Virus record (IMG/VR): IMGVR_UViG_3300033145_003126
Location: 1-46,266 of that record
Origin: a virus
Direction: 5' to 3' (one strand)
Length of the DNA: 46,266 nucleotides
Part shown: one piece after another, positions 18,184 to 36,610 of the stretch
Layout of the letters: the number at the start of each line of letters is the position of its first letter
Position numbering within the stretch: the stretch's first letter is position 1
The notes under the pieces: model-generated
Told to the model about the DNA's origin: nothing
Seen by the model: only the letters and a program-made list of their open reading frames with translations
The model's database searches: none
Made by a program: the position numbers and the translations under genes

Positions 18184-18335
18184 AGTGTTCCATATTTAGA
18201 TTCATATACTACTTTGTTTGGCTTAAATTCTATTTCTGTATATTCATCTTTTATCCATTCAAAAGAGTATACAGTCAATGCCAGAAGAATAGCTAGCAGA
18301 AGCCATGGCCTTATAAAGCCTTCAAATTCATCCAT
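18180..18335 (-). CDS. 51-aa single-TM micro-protein
   Basis: My translation is MDEFEGFIRPWLLLAILLALTVYSFEWIKDEYTEIEFKPNKVVYESKYGTL. Its ATG lies inside the last codons of the primase gene (AAAAATGGATGA) and its stop overlaps the next ATG. It is below the track cutoff. Confidence 0.45.
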   Translation of the reverse strand: MDEFEGFIRPWLLLAILLALTVYSFEWIKDEYTEIEFKPNKVVYESKYGTL

Positions 18336-21060
18336 TTTTCTTCACTATCAACCACCTAACAATATTTGATGATCTCTTCTTTAGGGATAGGCCACCCAGT
18401 ACCATATCAACCATAGTGGAAAAGAACTTCCCAACAGTTCGGGAGTTCTTAGCCTTATTGCCCAAAGCATCAGTCAAGGCATTTCCAAGCTCTGTTTCTT
18501 CAGATTCGAAAGCTCCAAAAGCTGATTTAATTACTTCCCTGGTGGTGAATTCATCCCCATTAAAAACAGCCTGTAGTTGAGTAAGCACATCCAGCTTAGA
18601 TAATTGTAGAGGGTCATCTTTTTGGTTATTCTTTACAGCATCATTTACATCAATGCCACTTACTTTTAACAATGGCCTGCGAACAAACTGATCCCATAAT
18701 TTAAACCGGGTTGAGCCACCAACCTCCAGCATGCCCTTTCCATTGACTATGATAGATAGCAAAGCGGAAATTATCTTTTTTCGATTATCCATTGCCCATT
18801 GCCCAATATTATCTCTTTTAAACACTCTTGTGTTAGGGTCTTCCATATCAGGATTGATGGTGATAGGGTATATGCGGGTGGCAAAATCCCCCACAAATTT
18901 AATGCCATTTCCTGTGAATATCCAGATAACTGAAGATGGCACCTCTATGGTTTTATTCTCTCCAAGCTGCCTCCCGCCATATACATCATTGGACATAGCC
19001 ATAGCCAAACGGCCTGATTGGATAGTACTTCCCTGTTTAATATTATCAAATAATACACAGCTATGACCCTCTTGAAGTATAGCCAGAATGTGTTTGCCAA
19101 GTTCTTCTTCATCTTCACTCCAGGAGCTTGCAGCCACAGGCCTATTAAATACTGAATAAGAAAGTAGTTGGGCCAGGGTGGTCTTACCAGAACTCTGGAT
19201 GGGGGATACTATACCAAAACCAGGCATCCCGGTATCTCCAGCAATAGTGGGCCTTTGAATAGCAGTTAATAGAGCAGCAATTGCTACCACTCTATCTAAT
19301 TCTTCAGCAAAAGGGAACTCATCCAGAACTACCTTAGAAATATATTCATAGGCCACTTTTGGATCCATTTTAGTCACTTTAAGCTTTCGGTGGAGTAGAG
19401 TATAAAGGCCTGTGATTTTGTTGTAGCCATTCTTCTGCACTAAGTCCCATTTGTTGTCTATAAATGGGTGTTCTACTATCCCTGTGAGGGATTTAAAGTG
19501 ATTGTTGTTTGCTTCTCCTATCATATGTAGTACTCTTGTTGGGCATTCAATATCTGTTCCTGTTTCATTGGTGAAGATAACATCCTTTTCTAATCTGCCA
19601 CCAAGGGAATAGTATGGCCTCATGAAGTGTTTTATAATAGGGATTTTTGGATAATCTTTTCCAAGCTCTGCTAATTTAGTACACTGCCTGATAGTTTTTG
19701 GTATCCCCAAAGCAACACTGGCCAAGCCACCTCCCATCTTAAACACCTGGGGGTACTTTTTGGATTCAGCCAACACAGTTCCTGCTGCTTTAGACACATC
19801 CCCTCCATTGATAGCTGTACACTCCAACTCAAATACCCCTTTGGACTTTCTCTCTTCTGATTTGGCTGCTTTGGCCCTCTCTGCCTTTTCTTTATTGGCT
19901 TGTTCTTCTGCTATTTTAACAGTCTTTTTTACATCATTTACTCCAAAACCAATCTTGATCACTATCTGAGCAATAGCAGTAGTCCTATCCATTGGACTCA
20001 AATTTAATATCTTCTGAGCAAAATTGGCTTTGACTGTCAAGGTGTTCTCTTCTTTGATCCAGTATAGTACTTCCTCAAGGGTGGGATTATCCACAATCTC
20101 TACAGCACTATCCACAGACCTACCAATATCATCAAACCTATCCTGCCACCGCTTATCATTCTTTTCAGTAGAACTCATGCCCCTCTTAGCTGCGTTCATA
20201 GCCCCTTCCAGCATTTCCTTTACCGTAAGGGCAGGAACCTTCTTATTTATTAGTGAGAGAGCGAGTTTATTCAACTCTTCATGGTAGTTTTCGGCTGTTA
20301 ATATCTTTTCTACTCCAGCAGCAAGGTCATAACTATCTGAAGTACTGCTGATACCATTCCTTATTACTTTGTTAGAAGGATCAGGCACCCAGAAAAGCTC
20401 ACCCATCTTCTGGACATAACCCAGGAAGTTCTTCACTGGGTCTTCAGCTCCTTCACAGATTCTCTTCTGAATATAGATAGGCTGAGCACAATTCAGAACA
20501 CTATCATCAATGATATTGCCCCAGCCCTTCTCCTTATTATAGCCTTTTATCCAGGCCCGGATATCAAGATTGTGGACTGGAGTATTGAGCCAGAAGAAGA
20601 GATGGCACTTCAATTCTTTAGTGGTCAGACCATAAGAAGATGAATATTGATAGATATAATCTGCGGAATGGAATGGCTCAGGAAGTTGCTCTGTGATAAA
20701 GGCTTCAATATCTGGATTTTTATATCCATCAATATCTAAGCAGAACAGGCTCAAGTTCCTATCTGTTATAGTAGGTTTGAGCCCATCTTGGTGATCTGAC
20801 CTTTTCCGTCTGATCATATTCTCTTTGTCAGTTCCATCTATTATGGCTCCATGGATCATGAAGACTGAATGGTCTTGATTAGTCTGTAGAATTTCATAGG
20901 CTTGTTGGAGAGTTTTAATTGGTATTTCAAATCCTTTGAAGTACTTCCCAGCCTTGTAATTCTTTTTCAGCTCCCACTCCCCCTGCTCAAATGCAAAGGT
21001 CTTTGTGGCCACCCCTTTAAGGGGCATTAGAAAATTGAAATTATGTTCCATATGATTCAT
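18328..21060 (-). CDS. Bifunctional primase-polymerase / P-loop helicase (replication initiator)
   Basis: About 910 aa. The N-terminal prim-pol-like part carries LFCLDIDGY (DxD). The C-terminal part has Walker A SPIQSSGKTTLAQLL and Walker B CVLFDNI. I moved the start to ATG 21060 (MNHMEHN), which has the RBS AAGGAAGG and an ATGA overlap with the upstream micro-ORF. Confidence 0.8.
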   Translation of the reverse strand: MNHMEHNFNFLMPLKGVATKTFAFEQGEWELKKNYKAGKYFKGFEIPIKTLQQAYEILQTNQDHSVFMIHGAIIDGTDKENMIRRKRSDHQDGLKPTITDRNLSLFCLDIDGYKNPDIEAFITEQLPEPFHSADYIYQYSSSYGLTTKELKCHLFFWLNTPVHNLDIRAWIKGYNKEKGWGNIIDDSVLNCAQPIYIQKRICEGAEDPVKNFLGYVQKMGELFWVPDPSNKVIRNGISSTSDSYDLAAGVEKILTAENYHEELNKLALSLINKKVPALTVKEMLEGAMNAAKRGMSSTEKNDKRWQDRFDDIGRSVDSAVEIVDNPTLEEVLYWIKEENTLTVKANFAQKILNLSPMDRTTAIAQIVIKIGFGVNDVKKTVKIAEEQANKEKAERAKAAKSEERKSKGVFELECTAINGGDVSKAAGTVLAESKKYPQVFKMGGGLASVALGIPKTIRQCTKLAELGKDYPKIPIIKHFMRPYYSLGGRLEKDVIFTNETGTDIECPTRVLHMIGEANNNHFKSLTGIVEHPFIDNKWDLVQKNGYNKITGLYTLLHRKLKVTKMDPKVAYEYISKVVLDEFPFAEELDRVVAIAALLTAIQRPTIAGDTGMPGFGIVSPIQSSGKTTLAQLLSYSVFNRPVAASSWSEDEEELGKHILAILQEGHSCVLFDNIKQGSTIQSGRLAMAMSNDVYGGRQLGENKTIEVPSSVIWIFTGNGIKFVGDFATRIYPITINPDMEDPNTRVFKRDNIGQWAMDNRKKIISALLSIIVNGKGMLEVGGSTRFKLWDQFVRRPLLKVSGIDVNDAVKNNQKDDPLQLSKLDVLTQLQAVFNGDEFTTREVIKSAFGAFESEETELGNALTDALGNKAKNSRTVGKFFSTMVDMVLGGLSLKKRSSNIVRWLIVKKNG

Positions 21061-21221
21061 CCTTCCTTTCTTGGTGCTTCCCATCCATCATGAATTAAAC
21101 ATCCATCTGTCATATCCCCAATACAAGTGCAGGCTGGATCACTAATTTCTGGTGTGATTTTAATCTCTGTTATGGTAAAATTAGTTTGCCCAATATCAAT
21201 ATATACAGTTGCCTTATCCAT
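21057..21221 (-). CDS. 54-aa Cys-containing micro-ORF, leader gene of the primase operon
   Basis: My translation is MDKATVYIDIGQTNFTITEIKITPEISDPACTCIGDMTDGCLIHDGWEAPRKEG. There is an RBS (AAAGGGA) 7 nt upstream, and the stop overlaps the primase ATG. Confidence 0.4.
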   Translation of the reverse strand: MDKATVYIDIGQTNFTITEIKITPEISDPACTCIGDMTDGCLIHDGWEAPRKEG

Positions 21222-26080: not shown

Positions 26081-26898
26081 TGGCACAGTTACCAATAGAC
26101 ACCAGATTGAAGACTGAACAGGCAATTGAAGATGGGCTCATTGTTCAAGATTTCAGGCCATATTTAGGCATATCAGGTATAGGAGAAAAATGCCCCAGGA
26201 GCTTGTTCTATGGCTTTCGGATGTGCTCTGTGAAGACTATAACCCAAAGAGTTGCCAGGCTGTTCCAGAGAGGGCACCAGGAAGAACCAATCATCCAGGC
26301 AGACCTTAGAAGGATAGGCATTTGGCACCATGATGACCAGAAAGAGGTAGTTACAGGTCATGGCCACATTAAGGGGCATATTGATGACCTATTAGATTTT
26401 GTCCCAGATGCTCCTAAAACCACTCACCTTGGGGAGTATAAGACCCATAATGATAAAAGCTTCAAAGCTCTAAAGAAACAAGGCATGCTGAAAAGTAAAC
26501 CAACCCATTATGCTCAAATGATCTGCTATATGGATGAATTAGAACTGAAAAGAGGACTTTATATAGCAGTCAACAAAAATGATGATGAAAGATACTATGA
26601 ACGGGTATCAGCCAACCCGGAAAAGGCCAAAGAACTTATCCAGAGAGGTGTTGATATAATAGGCTCAGAAGTCCCTCCAACCAAAATGGCAAGCTCTACA
26701 TGGTTTGAGTGTAAGTGGTGTGACCATTATGAAGTCTGCCATTTCGGGGCCATTCCTCTGAAGAATTGTAGAACCTGCCAAAATGGAGATATCCATGATC
26801 ATGGTATTTGGGCCTGTGGTCGGCATGATATAAATTTATCATTTGAGCAGCAGAAATTGGGCTGTAAATATTATGATCTATTAGGTACACTAAAATGA
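26080..26898 (+). CDS. Cas4 / RecB-family PD-(D/E)XK exonuclease with 4-Cys Fe-S cluster
   Basis: An N-terminal Cys in GEKCPRSLFY, the nuclease motif IDDLLDF...GEYKTHN, and the C-terminal CKWCDHYEVC (CxxCx5C), with an extra Cys-rich tail. Confidence 0.8.
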   Translation: MAQLPIDTRLKTEQAIEDGLIVQDFRPYLGISGIGEKCPRSLFYGFRMCSVKTITQRVARLFQRGHQEEPIIQADLRRIGIWHHDDQKEVVTGHGHIKGHIDDLLDFVPDAPKTTHLGEYKTHNDKSFKALKKQGMLKSKPTHYAQMICYMDELELKRGLYIAVNKNDDERYYERVSANPEKAKELIQRGVDIIGSEVPPTKMASSTWFECKWCDHYEVCHFGAIPLKNCRTCQNGDIHDHGIWACGRHDINLSFEQQKLGCKYYDLLGTLK

Positions 26899-28436
26899 TT
26901 AAACTTAGAGATTATCAGCAGGAAGCCATCCAGGCCATATTCAAATACTTTTATTCTGGCAAGACAGGCAACCCGCTGGTTGTAGCTCCAACAGGATCAG
27001 GCAAAACCATCATTATCAGCGGTCTTTGTAAGCATGTATCTGATAATTGGCCTGGACAGCGTATTCTTATTGTTAGCCATGTTAAAGAAATATTAAGGCA
27101 GAACTATGAGGCCATGAAGAAACACCTTGTAAACAAAGAGATAGGGCTGTATAGTGCTGGTTTAAATAGTAAGACATTACAGGATATAACTATCGCAGGG
27201 ATCCAGTCGATATATAATAAGCCTGAATTATTTGATAACTTTGATATTATTATAGTGGATGAAGCTCACACTATCCCTCATACAAAAAATGGTATGTATC
27301 ATAAATTTTTTAAGCAGGTAGAAAAGCCAGTAATTGGTTTCACTGCTACTCCTTTCAGACTTGGAACAGGGTATCTTCATCAAGGCTTAGGAGCATTTTT
27401 TGATGATATAGTTTATACCATACCTATCAAGAAGCTACAAGATGCTGGTTATCTTTGCAAGCTATCTTCAAAGGGCACCAAGAAAAGGCTTGATGCTACT
27501 GATATGAGGAAGCAAGCTGGGGATTATATCCTGAAAGAATTATCCATTGCTTTTGATAGAGAAGCAATCACCACTGATATTGTTAAGGAGCTTTTGAACT
27601 ACAGATTGCTGAGGAAGAAATGGCTGTTATTTGCCATAGATATATCTCACTGTAATAATATCTGTCAGGAGTTAGATTCTGCTGGGATAAAGGTCAGGGT
27701 TGTTCACTCTAAACTCTCCAATCAGCAGAGAGATGAAAATATTGAAGCCTTTAAAAAGGGGCACATTCAAGCTCTGGTGTCAGTAGCAGTTCTGACAGTA
27801 GGCTTTGATGCCCCGGATGTAGACTTGATTGGCCTTCTCAGGCCTACTGCCAGCCCAGTTCTTCATGTCCAGATTATTGGCAGAGGGCTCAGACCTTTTC
27901 CTGGCAAAGATGATTGCCTCATATTAGATTTTGCTGGCAACTTGAGAAGAAATGGCCCGATTGATGCTCCAGTTATAAAAGTGAAAGGCAAAGGGACTGG
28001 AGAAGCTATAATGAAAGAATGTAATAATTGTTATGAAATAGTTCATGCTGCTGTAAGGATTTGCCCTTGCTGTAATAAAGCCTTTGAATTCAGGCATAAA
28101 CTCTCCAGCAAGTACTCCACAAAAGAGATAACTGCTTCAGTGAATTGGCATACTGTAGATGAAGTGAAGTACTTCAGGTATGTAGGAGCAAAAAAAATCC
28201 CTATGCTGAAAGTGAGATACTCCTGTGGGCTCAGGACTTTCAATGAATATGTCTGCTTAGAACATTCTGGATATGCCCAGCACAAGGCCCATCATTGGTG
28301 GAGAAGAAGAAGCAGAGAAGCTTCTCCAGACACCTCTCAGCAGGCATTAGAGCTTGTTCATACATTAGAGAAACCCAAAGAGATATTAGTTCATGAGGGT
28401 GGAAAATTTCCCACAATACAAGATCAAAAATTCTAA
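26895..28436 (+). CDS. Superfamily 2 DEAD/DEAH-box helicase
   Basis: Motif I VAPTGSGKT, motif II IIVDEAHT, motif III FTATP and motif VI QIIGRGLR, plus a C-terminal Zn-finger CNNCYEIV...CPCC. Confidence 0.85.
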   Translation: MIKLRDYQQEAIQAIFKYFYSGKTGNPLVVAPTGSGKTIIISGLCKHVSDNWPGQRILIVSHVKEILRQNYEAMKKHLVNKEIGLYSAGLNSKTLQDITIAGIQSIYNKPELFDNFDIIIVDEAHTIPHTKNGMYHKFFKQVEKPVIGFTATPFRLGTGYLHQGLGAFFDDIVYTIPIKKLQDAGYLCKLSSKGTKKRLDATDMRKQAGDYILKELSIAFDREAITTDIVKELLNYRLLRKKWLLFAIDISHCNNICQELDSAGIKVRVVHSKLSNQQRDENIEAFKKGHIQALVSVAVLTVGFDAPDVDLIGLLRPTASPVLHVQIIGRGLRPFPGKDDCLILDFAGNLRRNGPIDAPVIKVKGKGTGEAIMKECNNCYEIVHAAVRICPCCNKAFEFRHKLSSKYSTKEITASVNWHTVDEVKYFRYVGAKKIPMLKVRYSCGLRTFNEYVCLEHSGYAQHKAHHWWRRRSREASPDTSQQALELVHTLEKPKEILVHEGGKFPTIQDQKF

Positions 28437-28445
28437 GGAGAAAAA

Positions 28446-29378
28446 ATGAAAGATAAAATGATAATAATAGGGGCAGGAATGTCTGGCCTTTTGGCAGGAG
28501 CTTTGAACCCTGGAGCTACCATCCTTGAGGCTGGCCCAGATAAGGAGTTGAATCATAAAGCATTATTCAGGTGCAAAACTCCCCAGATTGGTCAACTGCT
28601 TGGCCTACCTTTTAAAGAAGTAAAAGTCCAAAAAGCAATCTGGCTTGATGGAATAGAAGTCCAGCCAACTCCCCGGATAATCCATATGTATTCTCAAAAG
28701 GTCTCTGGGACTATATCTGCCAGAAGTATATTTGATATCACTTCTGGTGCCAGATATCTTCCTCCAGACAACTTTTTTGATAGACTCAAAGAAAGATGCA
28801 ATATCAGGTATGATTCTCCTTTTGATCTAAGTTACCTATATAAAAATAGTTTCAAAGAGATTATTATATCAACTATCCCTTTGCCAAAGATGGTATCTAA
28901 ATATGGTCTATTCTGTGAAAGTGCATTCAGAAGTAAAACCATACACATAGTCCGTATGGTGATACCTGATTGTGATTCTCACTGTACCATTTATTATCCA
29001 GACCCAGCATTCTCTGCATACAGAGCCAGTCTTACTGGCAACATCCTGACAATAGAAGGTATGAAAAAAATCCAAACTCCTGATATAGAAGAGATAAGAG
29101 TGTCTATGGGGCTGCTATATTCTTCATTCCCAAAAATAAAAGATATGAAAGTCTACAGGCAGAAGCAGGGCAAAATACTTCCAATAAATGAAAGGGAGCG
29201 AACCAGCCTCATCACCCAATTAACTTTATCACATAGGATTTATTCTCTTGGAAGGTTTGCTACCTGGAGGCCAAAAGTGATGCTGGATGATGTGATGGAA
29301 GATATTTTTGTAATTAGAAGGCTTATTGAAGAAGGCAATTATGGAAGTTTAAAACACAGACAAGGAGAAAAATCATGA
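28446..29378 (+). CDS. FAD/NAD(P)-binding Rossmann flavoenzyme (UDP-galactopyranose-mutase / amine-oxidase-like, tentative)
   Basis: An N-terminal IIIGAGMSGLLAG (GxGxxG). The C-terminal LGRFATWRPKVMLDDVMEDI recalls the GRLaxYkYxdMD end of UDP-galactopyranose mutases. At 310 aa it is shorter than typical mutases. Confidence 0.45.
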   Translation: MKDKMIIIGAGMSGLLAGALNPGATILEAGPDKELNHKALFRCKTPQIGQLLGLPFKEVKVQKAIWLDGIEVQPTPRIIHMYSQKVSGTISARSIFDITSGARYLPPDNFFDRLKERCNIRYDSPFDLSYLYKNSFKEIIISTIPLPKMVSKYGLFCESAFRSKTIHIVRMVIPDCDSHCTIYYPDPAFSAYRASLTGNILTIEGMKKIQTPDIEEIRVSMGLLYSSFPKIKDMKVYRQKQGKILPINERERTSLITQLTLSHRIYSLGRFATWRPKVMLDDVMEDIFVIRRLIEEGNYGSLKHRQGEKS

Positions 29379-30214
29379 TATTATCAATTAATCTTCCCAC
29401 TAATAATCCAAACAATTATTTTAATATTCTGGAGCCAAGCCTTATCAATTTAGAGTCTTTATTGGATTTCTGTGCTGTCCAATTCTCTTTTGTATTCCAG
29501 ACTCCTTGGACACTTGGAGAGATAAACAGAGCAGAGAAAAAATTAATTAGTAAAGGCTTTGAAATCCAAGAAGGTGTTGCTCTTGCAGTAAAGAATCCAT
29601 CTATGACTTGCCTGAGAAATATAGGCATAATGAATTCTCCAAAAGCAGATTATTATTTGATTGCTGATGATAATTTTGAATTTAGAAGTGGCACCCCTAA
29701 ATATCCTTATGATAGTGGGATAAGATATTCCCAATGCTTACAGTATTTGAATGAATATCCTAACTGTGGTTTTGTTATGTGTGAAGGAAGTCTGGGGGGA
29801 TCAGTGCAAAAAATGAAAATAAGCTCAACAAAAGTGGGACTATTTGCAACCACTCGTGGTTTGATATTAAGGAATATTGGCCCCAAAAAAATTTATAGGC
29901 AAACCTCTCATCTTCTGGGTGGTCTTGAAGAATCAGTGGCCTGTTATCACATAATGGAAAAAGGCTTTTTTCCAGCAAAACAATTCAATAACCCCACTAT
30001 TAATAAGGATATGAAAAAACCAAATTGTGGGAATTTTATCCATGATGAAGAAGTTTGGGAAGAAAATTGTGCAAAATATATCAAAGAAAGATATAATGAT
30101 CTGGATTGGTCATACCAGAAAAAGAAATTGCCAAAAGGACTTATAAAATGCTTCACAGCAAATGGGGGAAGTAAAGAAATATTAAAAAACAGGATTTTTG
30201 AAATGGATTTTTAA
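29375..30214 (+). CDS. GT-A fold glycosyltransferase-like protein
   Basis: The N-terminal MILSINLPTNNPNNYF..L.PSL.NL resembles the GT2 opening strand. YYLIADDNFEF supplies a DxD-type acidic motif. ATGA overlap with the flavoenzyme gene. Confidence 0.45.
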   Translation: MILSINLPTNNPNNYFNILEPSLINLESLLDFCAVQFSFVFQTPWTLGEINRAEKKLISKGFEIQEGVALAVKNPSMTCLRNIGIMNSPKADYYLIADDNFEFRSGTPKYPYDSGIRYSQCLQYLNEYPNCGFVMCEGSLGGSVQKMKISSTKVGLFATTRGLILRNIGPKKIYRQTSHLLGGLEESVACYHIMEKGFFPAKQFNNPTINKDMKKPNCGNFIHDEEVWEENCAKYIKERYNDLDWSYQKKKLPKGLIKCFTANGGSKEILKNRIFEMDF

Positions 30215-30227
30215 AAGGAGAAAAATC

Positions 30228-30995
30228 ATGACAAACAAAGATGCAGCAGAAGTAAAATTGATTGATGCTACTAACTATGCCCTTGAGGTTCTTATCTATA
30301 CCAAAAGTGGAAGGCTTGCCACAGGAACCACTTTAGATGAGATCAAATATGACTGGGACTATTCCAAAAAGCTGGAACACTTATCATATATGATGGATAC
30401 TATCAAAAGTTCATTTGAATTTGTAGATTATATTTTTGAAATTAAAAATGTATCCAGAGCTTTCACCCATCAGTTGGTTAGGACAAGAACAGCCTCATTC
30501 CAGCAGCAATCTCAGCGGACAGTTGATGCCAGGAATTTTACCTATATGAAGTCTACAGATCATCCTGGTTATGAAAAGGCATTTGAACTGAGCCTTGAAG
30601 AATATGGGAAGATGTTAGATTCTGGAGTGCCAGTCCAAGATGCCCGTGGAGTACTTGGAACAGGAATCCACACCAGTATTTTTGTCAAAGGCAACCTCAG
30701 AACTTTATCAAATATGGCAGAACTCCGCTTGTGCAAAAGGGCAGAAGGGGAGTACCAATCTGTGTTTAAGAAGATGATTGAGCTGGTATTAGATATCCAT
30801 CCCTGGGCCAAACCTCTCTTGACCTGTTATTGTGTAAGAACTGGAATCTGTTATTTCCCTCGATATGACAAATGCCCAGTCCAAAGATATACCATGAAAA
30901 TTTCTTCAGAGTATAAAATGCGTATTGAAGAGGTTTGGGCTGATACAGATCATGTGGCCAATCCCAAGACAAATACAGATGGGATGACCATGTAG
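30228..30995 (+). CDS. thyX: Flavin-dependent thymidylate synthase ThyX homologue (variant RTR(X)7S motif, Cys-rich C-terminal extension)
   Basis: NVSRAFTHQLVRTRTASFQQQSQR and DARGVLGTGIHTSIFVKGNLRTLSNMAELRLCKRAEGEYQ fit ThyX. I trimmed the start to MTNKD (RBS AAAAGGAG). Confidence 0.8.
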   Translation: MTNKDAAEVKLIDATNYALEVLIYTKSGRLATGTTLDEIKYDWDYSKKLEHLSYMMDTIKSSFEFVDYIFEIKNVSRAFTHQLVRTRTASFQQQSQRTVDARNFTYMKSTDHPGYEKAFELSLEEYGKMLDSGVPVQDARGVLGTGIHTSIFVKGNLRTLSNMAELRLCKRAEGEYQSVFKKMIELVLDIHPWAKPLLTCYCVRTGICYFPRYDKCPVQRYTMKISSEYKMRIEEVWADTDHVANPKTNTDGMTM

Positions 30996-31021
30996 GCCTG
31001 TTTTAAATTTTACTCACATAG

Positions 31022-31043
31022 TACTATTCAAAATTAATTTAAA
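31022..31043 (+). repeat. 22-bp element TACTATTCAAAATTAATTTAAA, copy 1
   Basis: An exact second copy lies at 38573-38594. Both lie just downstream of plus-strand stop codons. Confidence 0.9.
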
Positions 31044-31075
31044 CCCTATATACAAAGAATAAGGAGTGATAAACA

Positions 31076-31837
31076 ATGAAAAAACCTAAATGCATTATAG
31101 TAGACTTAGAAGGAACCTTGACAAATTGTAACCATAGAATAAAATATTGGCTGAATAAAGATTATGATAAATGGAATGAACTTTTTTCTGCTGATACAAT
31201 TAATGAGAATATGGTGGATATAATAAAGGATAAGCTGGAGGAAGGTTATAGTTTGGTGATGAGCACAGCAAAATCAATATCTAAAAAAGATGAAGTGCTG
31301 AGCTGGTTAAGGAGACACAATTTGCAAATCTGGTTCAGTGATATATTTTATAGGCTTTATGGGGATGATAGGCCAAGCCCAGAAATAAAATCAGATATAT
31401 TAAAAAAAATTCGGGAAAAATATTCTGTTGAAATAGCTTATGATGATAGAGAAGATATCTGTGAGATGTATGTTTCTCAAGGGGTGCATCATGTTGTAAG
31501 AATAAATCAGAATCCTGCTGAGCCTGAGTTTCCTATTGGTACCCCTGCTGATATTCTCAGGGAAGCAGCATCAACCTTTGAAAGCAAGAATGAAGAATAT
31601 GGTGATGGGTGGAAAAAATTTGGGGCAATCATGATGTCCCTTTTCCCTACTGGTCTGGAATTAAAAACTGAAGAAGATTTCAGTCGATTTGCTATCCTGA
31701 ATATTATGGTGGCAAAGTTGGACAGATATTGTAAGAATTTTAACAAGGGTGGCCATCCTGATAGCCTGATTGATCTGTCAGTTTATTCTGCTATGCTATT
31801 AACTTTGGATAAGGAGGGGAGTAATGATTCCAATTAA
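31076..31837 (+). CDS. Fusion of an HAD-type phosphatase domain and an all-alpha nucleotide-(pyro)phosphohydrolase-like domain
   Basis: The N-terminal part has IIVDLEGTL (HAD motif I with Glu in place of the second Asp) and ..STAKS..WLRRHNL...LYGDDRPSPEIKSDIL, as in phage PNK-type phosphatases. The C-terminal part has KNEEYGDGW...VAKLDRY...HPDSLIDLSVYS, recalling MazG / DUF1599-type helical domains. Confidence 0.5.
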   Translation: MKKPKCIIVDLEGTLTNCNHRIKYWLNKDYDKWNELFSADTINENMVDIIKDKLEEGYSLVMSTAKSISKKDEVLSWLRRHNLQIWFSDIFYRLYGDDRPSPEIKSDILKKIREKYSVEIAYDDREDICEMYVSQGVHHVVRINQNPAEPEFPIGTPADILREAASTFESKNEEYGDGWKKFGAIMMSLFPTGLELKTEEDFSRFAILNIMVAKLDRYCKNFNKGGHPDSLIDLSVYSAMLLTLDKEGSNDSN

Positions 31838-32762
31838 AAGACAGAATAAAATATTGAGATATGCAAACCGGGTAGGAAAAAATTCTGATCCTGTATCTAT
31901 TCAGGCATCAATTACAGATTATTGCTTCAACAAATGTGCTATGTGCAACCACCACAAGCGGGCAAGAAAAAAGATATTGAATTGTGAAGATTGGATAAAT
32001 TTTTTAAATAGCCACCCAAAAATTGAATCTGTGTGTTATGCAGGAGGTGATCCTTTTACCAATCCATATATAAATAAGATAATGGAGCACCATAAGGAAT
32101 CAGGGCAAGCATTTGGCTTTATATGCTGTGGATTCATCCCTGACAAAGTTGATATGGATCTGCTGGAAATGGCAAGGTGGGTCAGAGTGAGCTTAGACAG
32201 TATTAACCCTGATGCTTATGCCTGCCAAAGAGGAGGGTTGCCTCTTGATTTAGTACTTTCCTCTATTAATAGCATGATTGAAGCATCAGTAAATGTTGAG
32301 TTGACTATAACTGTCACAGATATTAATTGTGGAGACATAAAAGAATTGATTGATTATGCAGCAGAGAATGGCTTATGTGGGGATATTCATCCTGCTTATG
32401 GAACCACTTTTGCTAAACTTGGGGTCAGCTGGATAAAACAATACTGTGAAGATATAAAAGAGAATGTAATTTTATCTCCATACTCCCATGGAGATTTTTA
32501 TTTTCAGGACTGTTATGCCCCCTATTACCAATTATATATAGATGCCAATGGGGATATATATCCCTGCTGTACTGCTGGGGGAGATACAGAAAAAGCCCCA
32601 CGAATGCACCCAATAGGATCAATTTATGATTGGGATACATTTCTAAAAAATAGAAAAAAATTCACAGGAGATCAACCATTCTGTCAATTTTGTCTTGACC
32701 GTTTTGGAATGATAAATAAGACAATTGAAGATAACTCCCCTTTTATCAAATCTTTTTTCTAA
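31824..32762 (+). CDS. Radical SAM enzyme with SPASM/twitch-like C-terminal Cys domain
   Basis: CFNKCAMC (CxxxCxxC) and GGDPFTNP. The C-terminal part has DCYAPYYQLYIDANGDIYPCC and CQFC. A strong RBS (AAGGAGGGGAG) is present, with a 14-nt overlap with the upstream gene. Confidence 0.8.
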   Translation: MIPIKRQNKILRYANRVGKNSDPVSIQASITDYCFNKCAMCNHHKRARKKILNCEDWINFLNSHPKIESVCYAGGDPFTNPYINKIMEHHKESGQAFGFICCGFIPDKVDMDLLEMARWVRVSLDSINPDAYACQRGGLPLDLVLSSINSMIEASVNVELTITVTDINCGDIKELIDYAAENGLCGDIHPAYGTTFAKLGVSWIKQYCEDIKENVILSPYSHGDFYFQDCYAPYYQLYIDANGDIYPCCTAGGDTEKAPRMHPIGSIYDWDTFLKNRKKFTGDQPFCQFCLDRFGMINKTIEDNSPFIKSFF

Positions 32763-32770
32763 GGAGTGAT

Positions 32771-33301
32771 ATGTATACAATATTTGATCAAGAAACTACA
32801 GGGCTGTTAAAGGCCAAGGGCTCAGATATACTTCACCAGCCTCATGTGACAGAATTTTATGCCATGCAGGTAAATGAAAAAGGGGAGTTAGTAAAAGAAT
32901 TTGAGTCCTTGGTCAAGCCACCTATTCCCATTCCTGCCTTCCTTGAGAAGCAGATAGGGGTCACTAACCAGATGGTGGCAAATGCTCCCCACTTCATTGA
33001 GATTTATAAAGAAATCATTAATGTATTCTTTGGGTCTCATACTGTTATTGCTCATAATCTTTCCTTTGATGAAGGTGTTTTAATTTATGAGCTGAAGAGA
33101 ATAGGCAAGGAATATCACTTCCCATACCCTCCAATTAAATTCTGTACAGTGGAGCAATCTATGTACATTAAGGGATACCGCTTGAAGAACTCTGAGCTAT
33201 ATGAATTGGCCACTGGGGAAGTTATGGTGGGTGCTCATAGGGCCAAAGTAGATGTTCTTGCTACATATGAATCTTATAAATGGTTAAAGGGGCAGAAATG
33301 A
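32771..33301 (+). CDS. DEDDh 3'-5' exonuclease (DnaQ / Pol III epsilon-like)
   Basis: ExoI IFDQETTGL, ExoII IAHNLSFDEGVL and ExoIII HRAKVDVLA. Confidence 0.85.
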   Translation: MYTIFDQETTGLLKAKGSDILHQPHVTEFYAMQVNEKGELVKEFESLVKPPIPIPAFLEKQIGVTNQMVANAPHFIEIYKEIINVFFGSHTVIAHNLSFDEGVLIYELKRIGKEYHFPYPPIKFCTVEQSMYIKGYRLKNSELYELATGEVMVGAHRAKVDVLATYESYKWLKGQK

Positions 33302-33444
33302 ATAAATTCAGATCACTTCTTTATCTTCTTGCTAAATTATTAGGGGATGCCAATGCAATTCACAAGAATAAAATTGGGAAGAGAATTGGCAGAAGATTGG
33401 CAGGAAGAGTAACAGGCAAATTTTTAGGGAGGTTTTTCAGATGA
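33298..33444 (+). CDS. 48-aa arginine/lysine-rich micro-protein
   Basis: My translation is MNKFRSLLYLLAKLLGDANAIHKNKIGKRIGRRLAGRVTGKFLGRFFR. There are ATGA overlaps at both ends (33298 and 33441). It is below the track cutoff. Confidence 0.5.
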   Translation: MNKFRSLLYLLAKLLGDANAIHKNKIGKRIGRRLAGRVTGKFLGRFFR

Positions 33445-33800
33445 CAAAATGTCCATATTGTGGGAGAAAAGCAAAGCTGGTTGATGGGAGTTATTTTCAT
33501 CCAAATACCAAGTATATTGACAAAAACTATTTTGTTTGTCCTGGCTGTGATGCTCATGTAGGATGCCACAGAGGAACATCCATTCCATTAGGTACTCTGG
33601 CAAATGCAGAACTCAGAAAAAAAAGAATATTATTACACCAAACATTTGACTTATCCTGGAAATATTCTAAAGCATTGACCAGAAGGCAATCATATATAAG
33701 TCTGTCCATAAAATTAAACATACCATTAGCCAAGTGTCATATTGCTCTGTTTGATTTAGATATGTGTGATAAAGCTATGGAGGCATTGCTATGTGGTTGA
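33441..33800 (+). CDS. Zinc-finger protein (DUF3268-like pattern)
   Basis: CPYCG...CPGCDAHVGCHRGT..PLGTLANAELRKKR..H and ..CHIALFD. Confidence 0.6.
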   Translation: MTKCPYCGRKAKLVDGSYFHPNTKYIDKNYFVCPGCDAHVGCHRGTSIPLGTLANAELRKKRILLHQTFDLSWKYSKALTRRQSYISLSIKLNIPLAKCHIALFDLDMCDKAMEALLCG

Positions 33801-36610
33801 ATATTAAGACTGGATATACATTCAAGCAGGTATATGGGCATCTGGATAAGATAGCAGAGAAATGTGCCACCATGGCTGACTATGGTGGCATTGCTGATCT
33901 TGGGAATACTTTTGCTCATATCCCTTGGCAGAAAGCTTGTAAAAAAGTAGGAATAAAACCAATATATGGGGTACAGCTTCCAGTAACTGAAGACTTGCAG
34001 AAAGGGGTTAGAAGGTATCCATTCAACTGGATGACTTTAATTGCTAAAAATACTGAAGGATTACAAGAACTATATCAATTGGTGGATTCATCTTTTCAGC
34101 AATTTTATTATAGACAAAGAATAACCTATGAGCAGATAAATAAGACCACTGAGAATCTCTTTATTTTAAGTGGCATAGCTCCTAACCAAGACTTAATTAA
34201 AAGGCTTGTATACAAGGAATTAAGCCCCTGTACACCTATAAATAAAAGGTTCCTGGCAGATCAAAGGGGCTTTACTATTGCTTGTATAGATAATTTCTAT
34301 CCAGATGCTTCTGATGAAATTATTTATGAGCCTTTTGCTGATGAGAGATTAAGGGAAACTAAAACCAGCCCTTTGCATATCCTATCTGAAATGGAATGGA
34401 TTGACATCTATCCAAATAATCCAGGGGCAATATCCAATTTAAAACAGATGGCATCCCAATGCAATGTAGAACTCCCCAAAGCCCCTATGGTAAAATATAT
34501 TGGAGATGATAATATTGAAGAGTGGTGCCGAAAAGGAGCCATAGAAAAAGGCTTCACAGGCAAGCAGGAATATATTGATAGATATGTCAGAGAAATGAAG
34601 CTGATACATGAAAAAGATTATGTGGATTATTTCTTGGTGGTGGCTGATGCAATCCGATATGCTAAAACTAAAATGGCTGTAGGCCCAGCCAGAGGGTCAT
34701 CTGCTGGAAGCCTTGTCTGTTATCTAATGGGGATAACAGAAATTGATCCACTGGTATATGACTTATATTTTGAAAGATTCATTGATGTGAATCGTTTTGA
34801 CCTTCCTGACATAGATGTAGACTTTCAAGATGATAAGCGGCATCTGGTTATTAAATATTTGGAGAGGAAATATGGAAAAGATAATGTTGCTCAAATAGGC
34901 AATATAAATCGAATGAAGCCCAAATCTGCCATCACTCGTTTTGCCCAATCCCTTGGTGTCCCAGTAGATGATGTGGTGGAGTTGAAAGATGCTATCATGG
35001 AAAGATCAGGGGGAGATGCCAGAGCAAATTCCTGTATGGAAGATACTTTTATTGATACTGATGTTGGTAAAAAGTTTATTGAAAATTATCCAGCCATGGA
35101 AGTAGTAAAACACATTGAGGCACATCCATCCCATACAGGAGTGCATGCTGGTGGCATCCTGGTTTGCAATAGACCTATTACTGATTATTGTGGGGTGAAT
35201 AGTAGAGATAAAAAAAGAATTGGGATGCTGGATAAGAAGGATGCAGAGGCAGTTAATCTCTTGAAAATAGATGCATTAGGACTGAGAACACTATCTATTA
35301 TAGCAGGAGTCTGTGACCAGATTGGCAAACCTTATTCCTGGATGTATGAAATCCCAGTAGATGATGATCTGGCTTATAAAGTCTTCAATGATCACCGGTT
35401 CAATGGGATATTTCAGTTTGAAGGGGCAGCAGTACAAGGCTTGGCCAAACAGATGCCTATAAATAATATGGAAGATGTATCAGCACTTGGAGCTTTGGGT
35501 AGACCAGGCCCGCTGATGTCTGGTGGGGCCAATGATTTCATTTCTGGTAGAACTGGCAGAAAAGAAATTGAATATTTGAGTAACCATCCAGCAGTAGTGG
35601 ATGCTACAAAAGATACTTATGGGATTGTTATTTATCAAGAACAGATGCTGGCTATATGCAGGAATTATGGGAAGCTCTCTTGGGCTGATACCAGTGATCT
35701 AAGAAGAGCAGCATCCAAAAGTCTTGGGGAAGAGTTCTTTGATACATTTAAAGCAAATTTTATTGAGGGGGCACAAGACACTGGAGATGATGATGAGACC
35801 ATAGGCAAGGTGTGGAAAGCTATGCACACCTTTGGCTCCTGGGCTTTCAACAAATCTCATGCTGTATCATATGGGCTTATATCTTATATTTGTGCATATC
35901 TGAAAGCTCATCATCCTCTTGAATTTGTAGTGGCTTGCTTGAATCATGCCAATAGTGATAGATCAGCTCTAAAGATATTAAGAGACTCAGTTGAGCATGA
36001 TAATGTAAAACACGAGTATTTCAATGCTGAGAAGTCCATAGAGCAATGGAGTGTGCAGGATGGGATACTATATGGTGGGATGAGAACTCTGGCTGGTATG
36101 GGGCCAGTCCTGGCTGCTAAGGCAGTGAAGTTAAGGACTGCCGGGGGTGCCTACCCCACCGGTATGAAAAATAAGATCAAAAAAGCAATAAGCCCATTCA
36201 AATACCTATACCCTGCCAAAGAGTTATATGGGGATTATTATGATGATCCAAAATCTCATAATCTAAGTGGGAAAGTGAGTTTGATTTCTGAGGCAGATCA
36301 TGATGGAACTTTTACTATAATTGGCTGCTTGATTAAAAAGAATTTGAGAGATGCTAATGAGGCTTGTTTTGTTAGCAAAAGGAAGGGCAAATTTTTAAAA
36401 GGAAATACTGCTTGGCTTAATATTATTATTGAAGATGATACTGGCTCCATTATGTGCAAGATAAAAGTCCAGGATTATGAAAGGCTTGGCAGGGCAATAT
36501 CTGAAACTGGCAAAGAAGAGAAGGATTGGTACATGGTCCATGGCCAGAAGATAAATGGCTGGAGTTTAATTTTTGTCCAGAATATTAAAAAAATAACAAG
36601 GAGTCTATGA
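33791..36610 (+). CDS. dnaE: DNA polymerase III alpha subunit (DnaE-type replicative polymerase)
   Basis: A 939-aa ORF carrying ARGSSAGSLVCYLMGITEIDP, LPDIDVDF, LKIDALGLRTL and FNKSHAVSYG. Confidence 0.9.
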   Translation: MWLNIKTGYTFKQVYGHLDKIAEKCATMADYGGIADLGNTFAHIPWQKACKKVGIKPIYGVQLPVTEDLQKGVRRYPFNWMTLIAKNTEGLQELYQLVDSSFQQFYYRQRITYEQINKTTENLFILSGIAPNQDLIKRLVYKELSPCTPINKRFLADQRGFTIACIDNFYPDASDEIIYEPFADERLRETKTSPLHILSEMEWIDIYPNNPGAISNLKQMASQCNVELPKAPMVKYIGDDNIEEWCRKGAIEKGFTGKQEYIDRYVREMKLIHEKDYVDYFLVVADAIRYAKTKMAVGPARGSSAGSLVCYLMGITEIDPLVYDLYFERFIDVNRFDLPDIDVDFQDDKRHLVIKYLERKYGKDNVAQIGNINRMKPKSAITRFAQSLGVPVDDVVELKDAIMERSGGDARANSCMEDTFIDTDVGKKFIENYPAMEVVKHIEAHPSHTGVHAGGILVCNRPITDYCGVNSRDKKRIGMLDKKDAEAVNLLKIDALGLRTLSIIAGVCDQIGKPYSWMYEIPVDDDLAYKVFNDHRFNGIFQFEGAAVQGLAKQMPINNMEDVSALGALGRPGPLMSGGANDFISGRTGRKEIEYLSNHPAVVDATKDTYGIVIYQEQMLAICRNYGKLSWADTSDLRRAASKSLGEEFFDTFKANFIEGAQDTGDDDETIGKVWKAMHTFGSWAFNKSHAVSYGLISYICAYLKAHHPLEFVVACLNHANSDRSALKILRDSVEHDNVKHEYFNAEKSIEQWSVQDGILYGGMRTLAGMGPVLAAKAVKLRTAGGAYPTGMKNKIKKAISPFKYLYPAKELYGDYYDDPKSHNLSGKVSLISEADHDGTFTIIGCLIKKNLRDANEACFVSKRKGKFLKGNTAWLNIIIEDDTGSIMCKIKVQDYERLGRAISETGKEEKDWYMVHGQKINGWSLIFVQNIKKITRSL

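Follow-up and report, generated by a model that had tools for sequence, protein, structure and literature searches.

Pbunaviruses are among the commonest phages in Pseudomonas therapy, and sugar-derived thymidines were shown in their DNA only in 2025. DNA of the Pbunavirus F8 resists enzymes with TG-containing sites, mass spectrometry coupled to liquid chromatography (LC-MS) found novel nucleosides in the DNA of F8 (362 Da) and 14-1 (390 Da), and in both phages sugar-alcohol or cyclic-pentose derivatives take the place of about one quarter of the thymidines (Yee et al., 2025, 'END nucleases'; PMC12191111). Pbunaviruses lack recognisable hypermodification genes, and the biosynthetic genes are unassigned (PMC12191111). 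Wifceviruses also resist restriction, with no protection mechanism known. Of the papers covered by our literature search, none assigns genes to the Pbunavirus or Wifcevirus phenotype and none links proteins like UDP-galactopyranose mutase (UGM), or ThyX, to sugar-type thymidine modification. Here we analyse a block of five genes (P1, P2, ThyX, P4 and P5) in a metagenomic viral contig of 46,266 bp (IMG/VR record IMGVR_UViG_3300033145_003126), whose full length is called the window below. On balance, the block is probably a nucleotide/DNA base-hypermodification module within the replication operon of a podophage that encodes Pol III alpha, and it is a strong but unproven candidate for Pbunavirus-type sugar-derived thymidine chemistry.

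In the class represented by SP-15, YerA41 and Carin-5, a polyhydroxy-alkyl chain is joined by a carbon-carbon bond to uracil C5 and sugars are carried on its hydroxyls (PMC5977210; PMC12686479). Ribose label entered the side chain of the SP-15 base, 5-(4',5'-dihydroxypentyl)uracil, which is synthesised in nucleotide form (Walker and Mandel, 1978, as related in PMC5977210). In SP-15 (contig L103, 35026-39045), the short-chain dehydrogenase (SDR) gp129 abuts gp130, a 413-residue ThyX-like protein with ~170 extra residues, which is followed by the 691-residue gp131. The likeness to the locus studied here lies in this divergent ThyX-like protein directly after an SDR, in the polyhydroxy-alkyl chain and in P2 homologues, which occur in UDG-PolA phages of the SP-15 polymerase class (contig L009 and RHph_TM40). 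However, gp130 barely matches the ThyX clade linked to P1 (12 bits), the SP-15 replicase is Pol A and not Pol III, and P1 has no match between 80 and 130 kb of SP-15, the region searched.

The glycosylated hydroxypyrimidine systems, T-even glucosyl-5-hydroxymethylcytosine, RB69/DLP3 arabinosyl-5-hydroxycytosine and RL38J1, resemble the window in placing glycosyltransferases (GTs) and nucleotide-sugar enzymes beside nucleotide-metabolism genes and in drawing the acceptor base from a thymidylate-synthase-family enzyme; in RL38J1 a phage-encoded genuine UGM is the proposed source of the furanose donor, UDP-galactofuranose, for DNA glycosylation (PMC13326640). These systems rely on hydroxylases or hydroxymethylases of the ThyA family together with genuine UGMs, and modify C, whereas the window encodes ThyX and a P1 that is not a UGM at the sequence level, and its Pbunavirus relatives modify T.

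The 5-hydroxymethyldeoxyuridine (5-hmdU) route of M6, ViI, SP10 and phiW-14 is closer in its thymidine target, in the placing of modification genes within DNA-metabolism modules and in the possible use of radical S-adenosylmethionine (SAM) and flavin enzymes (Lee et al., 2018; PMC8989533). It differs in that its substituents derive from amino acids or polyamines and not from sugars, and in that its hydroxymethylase, kinase (5-HMUDK), aGPT-Pplase and pyridoxal phosphate enzymes were not found in the plus-strand module of the window. A preliminary description of the locus, made from its letters and open reading frames (ORFs), had noted the lack of a ThyA-type hydroxymethylase, a 5-hmdU kinase, aGPT-Pplase and queuosine genes, and Pfam and PHROG scans bear this out for the plus-strand module (21.5-38.6 kb; most minus-strand, structural-side genes lie outside the scan). 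If the DNA of this phage is modified, the genes of the block are therefore candidates. The same description held that the combination matches no described hypermodification pathway, which remains so in the comparisons above.

A core triad shared with Pbunaviruses

We assembled 80 viral contigs encoding P1 relatives and labelled their ORFs by iterated searches from the window proteins combined with all-against-all clustering. Dereplication at 80% P1 identity gave 50 lineages with a complete interval from P1 to the exonuclease gene. ThyX is present in 47 of the 50 and in 41 its start lies no more than 700 nt from the P1 stop, often in an ATGA overlap. A HAD domain occurs in 41/50 lineages and a DUF6378 domain, fused or in the next ORF, in 42/50. 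P1, the P1-linked ThyX and HAD plus DUF6378 thus form a core triad, directly followed by the exonuclease and Pol III alpha genes. The triad is common to Pbunavirus, Wifcevirus and Rhizobium Kleczkowskaviridae. Its minimal arrangement, without P2 and P5, is found in the phages Ss1 and VA-RY-3; Serratia MyoSmar, Xanthomonas FoX7 and Wifcevirus Bas98-101 are further cultured phages with the core alone. The nearest metagenomic relative (59-67% amino acid identity) carries all five genes in unchanged order.

The preliminary description had treated the five genes as one candidate pathway, and in this respect it has to be revised: the 50 lineages reveal a three-gene core and two rare accessories, P2 and P5. 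It had also named a lack of conserved linkage to replication genes as an observation that would speak against its proposal; gene-neighbourhood comparison found that linkage conserved in many relatives.

The Pbunaviruses PB1, F8, 14-1 and E217 carry the core triad in the same order as the window. In E217 the series comprises gp67 (P1), gp61 (ThyX), gp59 (HAD-DUF6378), gp58 (exonuclease) and gp57 (Pol III alpha); the 14-1 orthologues of P1, ThyX and HAD-DUF6378 are gp66, gp60 and gp58. The likeness extends to amino acid identities of 36-39% for P1 and ~41% for ThyX, to the fusion of HAD with DUF6378, to a DnaQ-like exonuclease followed by Pol III alpha, and to the reported product, which is sugar-derived and would fit a UGM-fold enzyme. 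Pbunaviruses differ from the window in lacking the P2 GT-A and P5 families and in having several small ORFs between P1 and ThyX. With the Pbunavirus biosynthetic genes unassigned, the correspondence is one of synteny only. The earlier proposal of hypermodification thus gains an experimental parallel from the modified DNA of Pbunaviruses, which have the core in common with the window.

The two Pbunaviruses with characterised nucleosides, F8 (contig L096) and 14-1 (L097), are 97% identical in P1 and 94% in ThyX, and most of their replication-module proteins are 93-99% identical. More divergent are gp71 (434 residues, no informative domain) at 57%, HAD-DUF6378 at 79%, and three small ORFs, gp59, gp61 and gp62, at ~80%. 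From these identities, gp71, HAD-DUF6378 and gp59/gp61/gp62 are candidates for the difference between 362 and 390 Da. If the core is responsible for the modification, P1 and ThyX would carry out the common step and other genes would set the identity of the side chain.

Accessory enzymes in a variable slot

Most accessory enzymes lie in a variable slot between DUF6378 and the exonuclease, whose content differs by lineage; at least one such enzyme is present in 35/50 lineages. SDRs and proteins of the VOC/glyoxalase fold each occur in 16 lineages, every VOC-fold protein directly after an SDR, and class-I methyltransferases occur in 15. The P5 radical-SAM family and the P2 GT-A family are each found in 3 of the 50, so that the five genes do not make up an obligate set.

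The commonest slot accessory, which is absent from the window, is the pair of an SDR and a ~165-residue VOC-fold protein with invariant His and Glu residues (for example L044 11093-12254, L080 4119-5262 and L013 8582-11402). The VOC-like family has no significant match in the PDB.

P1 has a predicted UGM fold and belongs to a phage-only family

The N-terminal GxGxxG motif of P1, IIIGAGMSGLLAG, is of the FAD-binding Rossmann type, and its residues G5, A6, G7 and G10 are invariant or nearly so among 43 homologues. P1 has no Pfam or NCBIfam match and falls in phrog_4828 (6e-71). Single-sequence searches of P1, P2 and P5 against PDB sequences gave nothing useful. An AlphaFold2 (AF2) model of P1 (pLDDT 92.7) returned UGMs as all of Foldseek PDB ranks 1-20 (E 1.2e-9 to 1.4e-8), with TM-scores of 0.53-0.64 normalised to the query (TMq) and only 0.37-0.47 normalised to the target (TMt), P1 being 60-190 residues shorter than the UGM targets. 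After the UGMs, the fold matches were amine oxidases, renalase (4zcc, TMt 0.54) and p-hydroxybenzoate hydroxylase (PHBH).

A sequence-level UGM identity for P1 was rejected. Alignments by hhalign to E. coli Glf and to a profile of six UGMs cover residues 2-15 only, with probabilities of 3.9% and 23%, respectively, and only the GxGxxG stretch aligns. The UGM invariant blocks YGAHIFH, R..P.R and YYP have no match in the P1 family in the profile comparison, and the C-terminal GRFATWR...DD of P1 resembles the UGM string GRLAEYKYYDM by eye only. Other groups of phages (Pootjesviridae, and T4-like phages of Aeromonas and Erwinia) do encode genuine UGMs, which are of a different sequence family. The UGM likeness first noted for P1 thus holds for the fold and for the presence of GxGxxG, and fails for the sequence as a whole.

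All 1762 P1 homologues lie on phage-sized contigs. Among 50,697 records of isolated phages, P1 homologues were found in 362, including F8, 14-1, PB1 and Wifcevirus. A GTDB scan that took one genome for each of 185,579 species of bacteria and archaea detected P1 on just four contigs, all from metagenome-assembled genomes (MAGs) and each with the same module; the family appears to be phage-restricted. Because the predicted fold is that of UGM and the sequence comparison failed, P1 is, as judged from its model, a UGM-fold flavoprotein of a separate, phage-only family and the signature gene of the core.

A dedicated ThyX clade paired with P1

The window ThyX, so named in the preliminary description, exceeds the curated cutoffs of both Thy1 (PF02511; 9.3e-36, 123.8 bits against a cutoff of 24.8) and TIGR02170 (97.4 bits against 87.9). 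It has RTR in place of the signature RHR, its motif LVRTRTASFQQQSQRT aligning to LVRHRHFSFSQLSQRF of PDB ThyX, and it departs from the strict signature RHR(X)7S..R(Y/F) in reading RTRTASFQQQSQRT, with T replacing the aromatic residue after SxR. The departure is a property of the clade. Among 85 ThyX sequences, comprising the window gene and the ThyX genes of the P1-linked contigs L001-L093, 84 have T, S or N for the His of RHR and V, T, A or I for the aromatic residue after SxR; both signature Arg residues and their spacing are retained.

Members of the P1-linked clade are ~40% identical to each other and at most 35% identical to other phage ThyX proteins. A close full-length match to ThyX was found in 361 of the 50,697 phage records, as compared with 362 for P1, and the taxon counts for the two proteins are identical (Pseudomonas 292, Escherichia 27, Serratia 9). 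Beyond the 361, identity falls sharply to the ThyX of archaeal viruses and of phages of Gram-positive bacteria. By these sequence counts, P1 and the P1-linked ThyX are an obligate pair.

P4 fuses a probable HAD phosphatase to DUF6378

The N-terminal domain of P4 is, by its profile, a HAD phosphatase of the PNKP-phosphatase type (HAD_PNKP, 62.2 bits against a cutoff of 27.6; PHROGs phrog_4889, 415 and 505) and matches gp59 of the Pbunavirus E217 (BLASTP 2e-15). Its motif I, within the string VDLEGT, is DLEGT (31103-31117, residues 10-14), with Glu at the +2 acid/base position, as against the canonical DLDG of the Pbunavirus orthologue. The C-terminal domain (phrog_1485) matches the C-terminus of E217 gp59 (BLASTP 1e-9). 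It belongs to DUF6378 (PF19905), a profile hit by 16 of the 22 proteins of its family (best 5e-5); by itself the window copy scores below detection but aligns throughout. The family alignment has an invariant K, R, D-S and D..Y, also present in the window copy, whose motifs read KNEEYGDGW, KLDRY and DSLIDLSVY. The region also matches PHROGs annotated as nucleotide kinases, and in relatives DUF6378 is either fused to HAD or encoded by a separate ORF right after it.

An NTPase/MazG identity for the C-terminal domain is unsupported, a PDB profile search having given only chance-level matches to POU domains. Of the HAD/NTPase fusion first proposed for P4, the HAD half is borne out by its profile and the NTPase label gives way to DUF6378.

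P2 and P5 are rare accessories

At E<0.1, P2 has no match in Pfam, NCBIfam or PHROG, and its family is tiny and phage-only, with only 25 homologues. D98 is invariant and D99 nearly invariant in the family, directly after strand 93-96 (LIADDNFEF in the window), and further family motifs are CEGSLGG and AKQFNNPT. The AF2 model (pLDDT 90.8) has no predicted membrane segment. Its Foldseek matches in the PDB are TarP, TarS, K4CP, AvpGT and SpsA (E 2e-8 to 4e-6, probability 1.00); in BFVD the top match has a TM-score of 0.83 and the remainder are viral GT-A proteins. The GT-A call made earlier from the motifs therefore finds support in the predicted fold and in the DD motif after the central strand. 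As modelled, P2 is a GT-A-fold glycosyltransferase and a rare accessory of the module.

In 9 of 12 distinct contexts P2 adjoins the P1-linked ThyX clade in the Pol III module. One exception is a contig of a UDG-PolA-type phage (L009, identical to L010 and L107; 6932-14304) without P1 or ThyX, where P2 neighbours an aldo-keto reductase, two radical-SAM-like proteins (both phrog_13321), a Dam methylase and several uncharacterised proteins; the contig may hold another modification cluster, distinct from the first, in which this GT-A family is employed. Another is a single uninformative contig. The third comprises Rhizobium Kleczkowskaviridae, where in RHph_TM40 P2 lies beside a UDP-glucose 4-epimerase (GalE), and P1, ThyX and HAD-DUF6378 are clustered 40 kb away from it.

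In RHph_TM40 (207 kb; contig L094, 6953-13615) the core is interspersed with a homing endonuclease of the Seg type, an exonuclease and numerous small ORFs, and it is followed by dUTPase and ribonucleotide reductase. In L054 (8620-9546) and L057 (9601-10485), proteins of ~300 residues replace HAD-DUF6378 after ThyX; their match to the P2 family is confined to its C-terminal half, AKQFNNPT region included, and they share a short region with Ss1 orf32-like proteins. The grouping of P2 with SS1_32-like proteins by single-linkage clustering was an artefact of a short common region, and a re-test with the P2-family HMM kept true members only. Pbunavirus gp68, which lies upstream of P1, was considered as a P2 analogue and rejected, since it is a low-complexity, Lys/Glu-rich protein with no similarity to P2.

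For P5, the profiles of both Radical_SAM (PF04055; 2.3e-10, 41.3 bits against a cutoff of 29.5) and SPASM (PF13186; 2.6e-5, 24.9 bits against 21.5) score above cutoff, and the CxxxCxxC motif (CFNKCAMC; C34, C38 and C41) is invariant, in agreement with the original radical-SAM and SPASM/twitch call. Further invariant cysteines are C71, C230, C248, C249, C287 and C290, five of them in the C-terminal domain. No functional subfamily (MoaA, PqqE, sactisynthase, QueE, NrdG and others) was reached, the best NCBIfam model being N_Twi_rSAM at 53.5 bits against 170. In a profile search of the PDB, P5 matched SkfB (1.7e-12), CteB, MoaA and PqqE and, more weakly, BlsE (4e-6), a nucleoside-sugar decarboxylase, and viperin-like enzymes. 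The family is small and phage-only (20 homologues). All 6 distinct contexts examined lie within the module that runs from P1 and ThyX to Pol III, and several adjoin an SDR and an FkbM-type methyltransferase. By its sequence profiles, the rare accessory P5 is a radical-SAM enzyme that carries an auxiliary Cys domain of the SPASM/twitch type.

Proposed chemistry and rival explanations

In the reading that we favour, the core would make a sugar-derived, C5-substituted deoxyuridine or thymidine of the type seen in F8 and 14-1. P1 would handle a nucleotide sugar by covalent chemistry at N5 of its reduced flavin, as UGM does; the ThyX-clade enzyme would provide dTMP or a C5-activated uracil nucleotide; and HAD-DUF6378 would strip phosphate from a nucleotide or sugar-phosphate intermediate. 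In the window phage, P2 would attach one more sugar at a hydroxyl of the side chain, and tailoring of that chain, through deoxygenation, epimerisation or C-C chemistry for instance, would fall to P5. The modified base would protect phage DNA from restriction.

The linkage of the sugar could take two forms, both of which reproduce the reported masses. A sugar O-linked to 5-hmdU would give 258 + 122 - 18 = 362 and 258 + 150 - 18 = 390, with P1 acting as an NDP-sugar pyranose/furanose mutase that feeds a transferase, as proposed for the UGM of RL38J1 (PMC13326640). This option needs a source of 5-hmdU, which was not found in the plus-strand module, and most core lineages have no P2-family GT in the interval. 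Alternatively, C1 of an aldose could be joined to uracil C5, with deoxyuridine (228) and a pentose (150) for F8 (228 + 150 - 18 + 2 = 362) and deoxyuridine (228) and a hexose (180) for 14-1 (228 + 180 - 18 = 390); on this option the base of F8 would correspond to SP-15 5-(4',5'-dihydroxypentyl)uracil in fully hydroxylated form.

To form such a C-C bond, UGM-type chemistry on a flavin N5-iminium would be combined with the corresponding chemistry of ThyX/TrmFO. UGM holds sugar C1 on FAD N5, and ThyX and TrmFO pass a methylene from FAD N5 to uracil C5. P1 has, by its model, the UGM fold and its obligate neighbour is ThyX, and the combined chemistry would lead to a C5-(polyhydroxyalkyl) or C-glycosyl uracil. 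The parallel is purely inferential; the UGM active-site residues could not be aligned in P1, and we know of no enzyme that passes a sugar from flavin N5 to a nucleobase. A 'glyco-thymidylate synthase' of P1 and the ThyX clade, in which deoxyuridine C5 would attack an FAD-N5 sugar iminium to give a C-C-linked 5-(polyhydroxyalkyl)- or C-glycosyl-deoxyuridine, is a speculative proposal that we regard as distinctly unlikely. If true, it would provide the first enzymology for the 50-year-old class of SP-15-type dihydroxypentyl-uracil.

Several observations weigh against a hypermodification module. The GT-A and radical-SAM genes are missing from most core lineages, and homing (HNH) endonucleases also enter the accessory slot, which may therefore be a mere permissive insertion site. 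P1 has no sequence relation to UGM beyond GxGxxG, and its fold is also well matched by those of renalase, amine oxidases and PHBH. HAD motif I of the window reads DLEGT, with Glu at +2. ThyX passes the TIGR02170 equivalog cutoff, which makes ordinary dTMP synthesis the default reading. No DNA-binding enzyme was identified in the block, and the TG-context specificity in Pbunaviruses implies a DNA-level step, which the proteins identified here do not explain. The link to the Pbunavirus modification is correlative, and Pbunaviruses hold many other unknown genes. Because P1 is 97% identical between F8 and 14-1 it is not what sets the difference between their side chains.

The main rival explanation is plain dTMP supply for the replisome, with ThyX making dTMP, P1 a redox helper and P2 and P5 unrelated cargo in a permissive slot. 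P1 would then be renalase- or amine-oxidase-like and would supply or recycle reducing equivalents or a folate or pterin species, HAD-DUF6378 would be a pool-balancing nucleotidase, and the SDR of relatives a FolM/PTR1-like pteridine reductase. The TIGR02170 score, the renalase (4zcc) and amine oxidase matches of P1, the failure of hhalign to link P1 with UGM, the rarity of GTs and the HNH endonucleases in the slot all favour this explanation, as do the translational coupling and one-to-one pairing of P1 and ThyX across lineages and the fusion of DUF6378 to nucleotide-kinase PHROGs elsewhere. However, ThyX itself uses NAD(P)H for the reduction of its FAD, and to our knowledge no ThyX has a partner protein of the P1 kind. 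The top 20 structural matches of P1 are all UGMs, and the accessories (GT-A, SDR, VOC, methyltransferases, radical SAM) are tailoring-like and specific to the module. Moreover, protection genes must exist in Pbunavirus and Wifcevirus, and the core is the only enzyme-rich unexplained set in their shared module. We consider dTMP supply somewhat unlikely.

A moron directed at a glycan of the host envelope, be it O-antigen, teichoic acid or capsule, with P1 as a nucleotide-sugar pyranose/furanose mutase and P2 as GT, ThyX and the HAD fusion being unrelated, could act in superinfection exclusion or receptor masking, and had been raised in the preliminary description. It draws on the nearest structures to P2, which are GTs of cell-wall glycans (TarS, K4CP, RmlT and TarP, the last of them prophage-encoded), and on the best fold match of P1, UGM being a cell-wall enzyme. 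The comparison of lineages weakens it: P1 lies in a replication operon, directly upstream of ThyX, often with an overlap, in 41/50 lineages and mostly without a GT, and the P2 family is tiny, phage-only and almost confined to this module, beside the ThyX clade in the 9 of 12 contexts described above. The P2 model is without a membrane segment, the known relatives are virulent phages, and genuine phage UGMs are of a different sequence family in different phages; the moron is highly improbable. A module that makes or destroys a nucleotide-derived metabolite outside DNA, such as an anti-defence molecule or a regulator of polymerase or nucleotide pools, would suit five proteins that look like soluble enzymes, the nucleotide substrates suggested by DUF6378 and HAD, and the weak profile matches of P5 to nucleotide-modifying enzymes (viperin-like, BlsE). 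We hold it to be very unlikely, since there is no specific similarity to known anti-defence enzymes and the Pbunavirus product is DNA-borne in phages with the same core (PMC12191111).

On the hypermodification reading, the core triad of UGM-fold flavoprotein, dedicated ThyX clade and HAD-DUF6378, widely conserved and phage-only, is the prime candidate gene set for the Pbunavirus thymidines. The different tailoring enzymes in one slot therefore predict a family of related, chemically diverse base modifications. If the reading is true, new flavin chemistry on nucleobases could emerge, and hypermodified genomes could be recognised from sequence alone, which would be relevant to sequencing and cloning, to choosing phages for therapy and to understanding modification-dependent defences, END nucleases among them. 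The question is directly testable in cultured relatives.

Locus layout and genome context

The ORF list confirms five consecutive plus-strand genes between the SF2 helicase and the exonuclease (Table 1), and the tight packing reported earlier was reproduced: a 4-nt ATGA overlap (29375-29378), a 13-nt gap (30215-30227), a 14-nt overlap (31824-31837) and gaps of 9 nt and 8 nt at the borders of the block. A further spacer between the ThyX and HAD genes, 80 nt long and AT-rich (30996-31075), was missing from the preliminary description. Scans for promoters and terminators in 26-34 kb gave sites at chance level only, a result that is consistent with co-transcription of the block and proves nothing.

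Table 1. Features of the block and of the neighbouring replication genes in the window.
Feature	Position	Strand	Description
SF2 helicase	26895-28436		Upstream neighbour of the five-gene block
P1	28446-29378	+	ORF of 310 residues
P2	29375-30214	+	ORF of 279 residues
ThyX	30228-30995	+	ATG at 30228; ORF opens at TTG 30198
P4	31076-31837	+	HAD + DUF6378 fusion; ORF of 253 residues
P4, N-terminal HAD domain	31076-31525	+	PNKP-phosphatase type; HAD_PNKP 7.6e-17, residues 4-138
P4, C-terminal DUF6378 domain	31526-31837	+	Helical, ~95 residues; phrog_1485
P5	31824-32762	+	ORF of 312 residues
DnaQ-like 3'-5' exonuclease	32771-33301	+	RNase_T 3.8e-16
DUF3268 zinc-finger ORF	33441-33800	+	4.6e-32; between exonuclease and Pol III alpha
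Pol III alpha	33791-36610	+	Closes the conserved module with the exonuclease and DUF3268 ORF

Downstream of Pol III alpha are genes for an ATP-dependent ligase and then a VRR-NUC nuclease. The nearest relatives of Pol III alpha are in ~40-kb phages, Cronobacter phage Ss1 (44.8% amino acid identity), Vibrio VA-RY-3 and PVA7, and Ralstonia PY059. Relatives are visible at the protein level only, megablast of 26-38 kb against the 50,697 phage records having found none at the nucleotide level. The DUF3268 ORF overlaps the start of the polymerase gene by 10 nt and was found in just 5 of the related loci.

A 918-residue minus-strand ORF (18328-21084) has no Pfam match. Minus-strand genes, structural ones included, flank the plus-strand replication module, and the GC skew of the window flips sign at the switches of gene orientation, near 21 kb and 38 kb.

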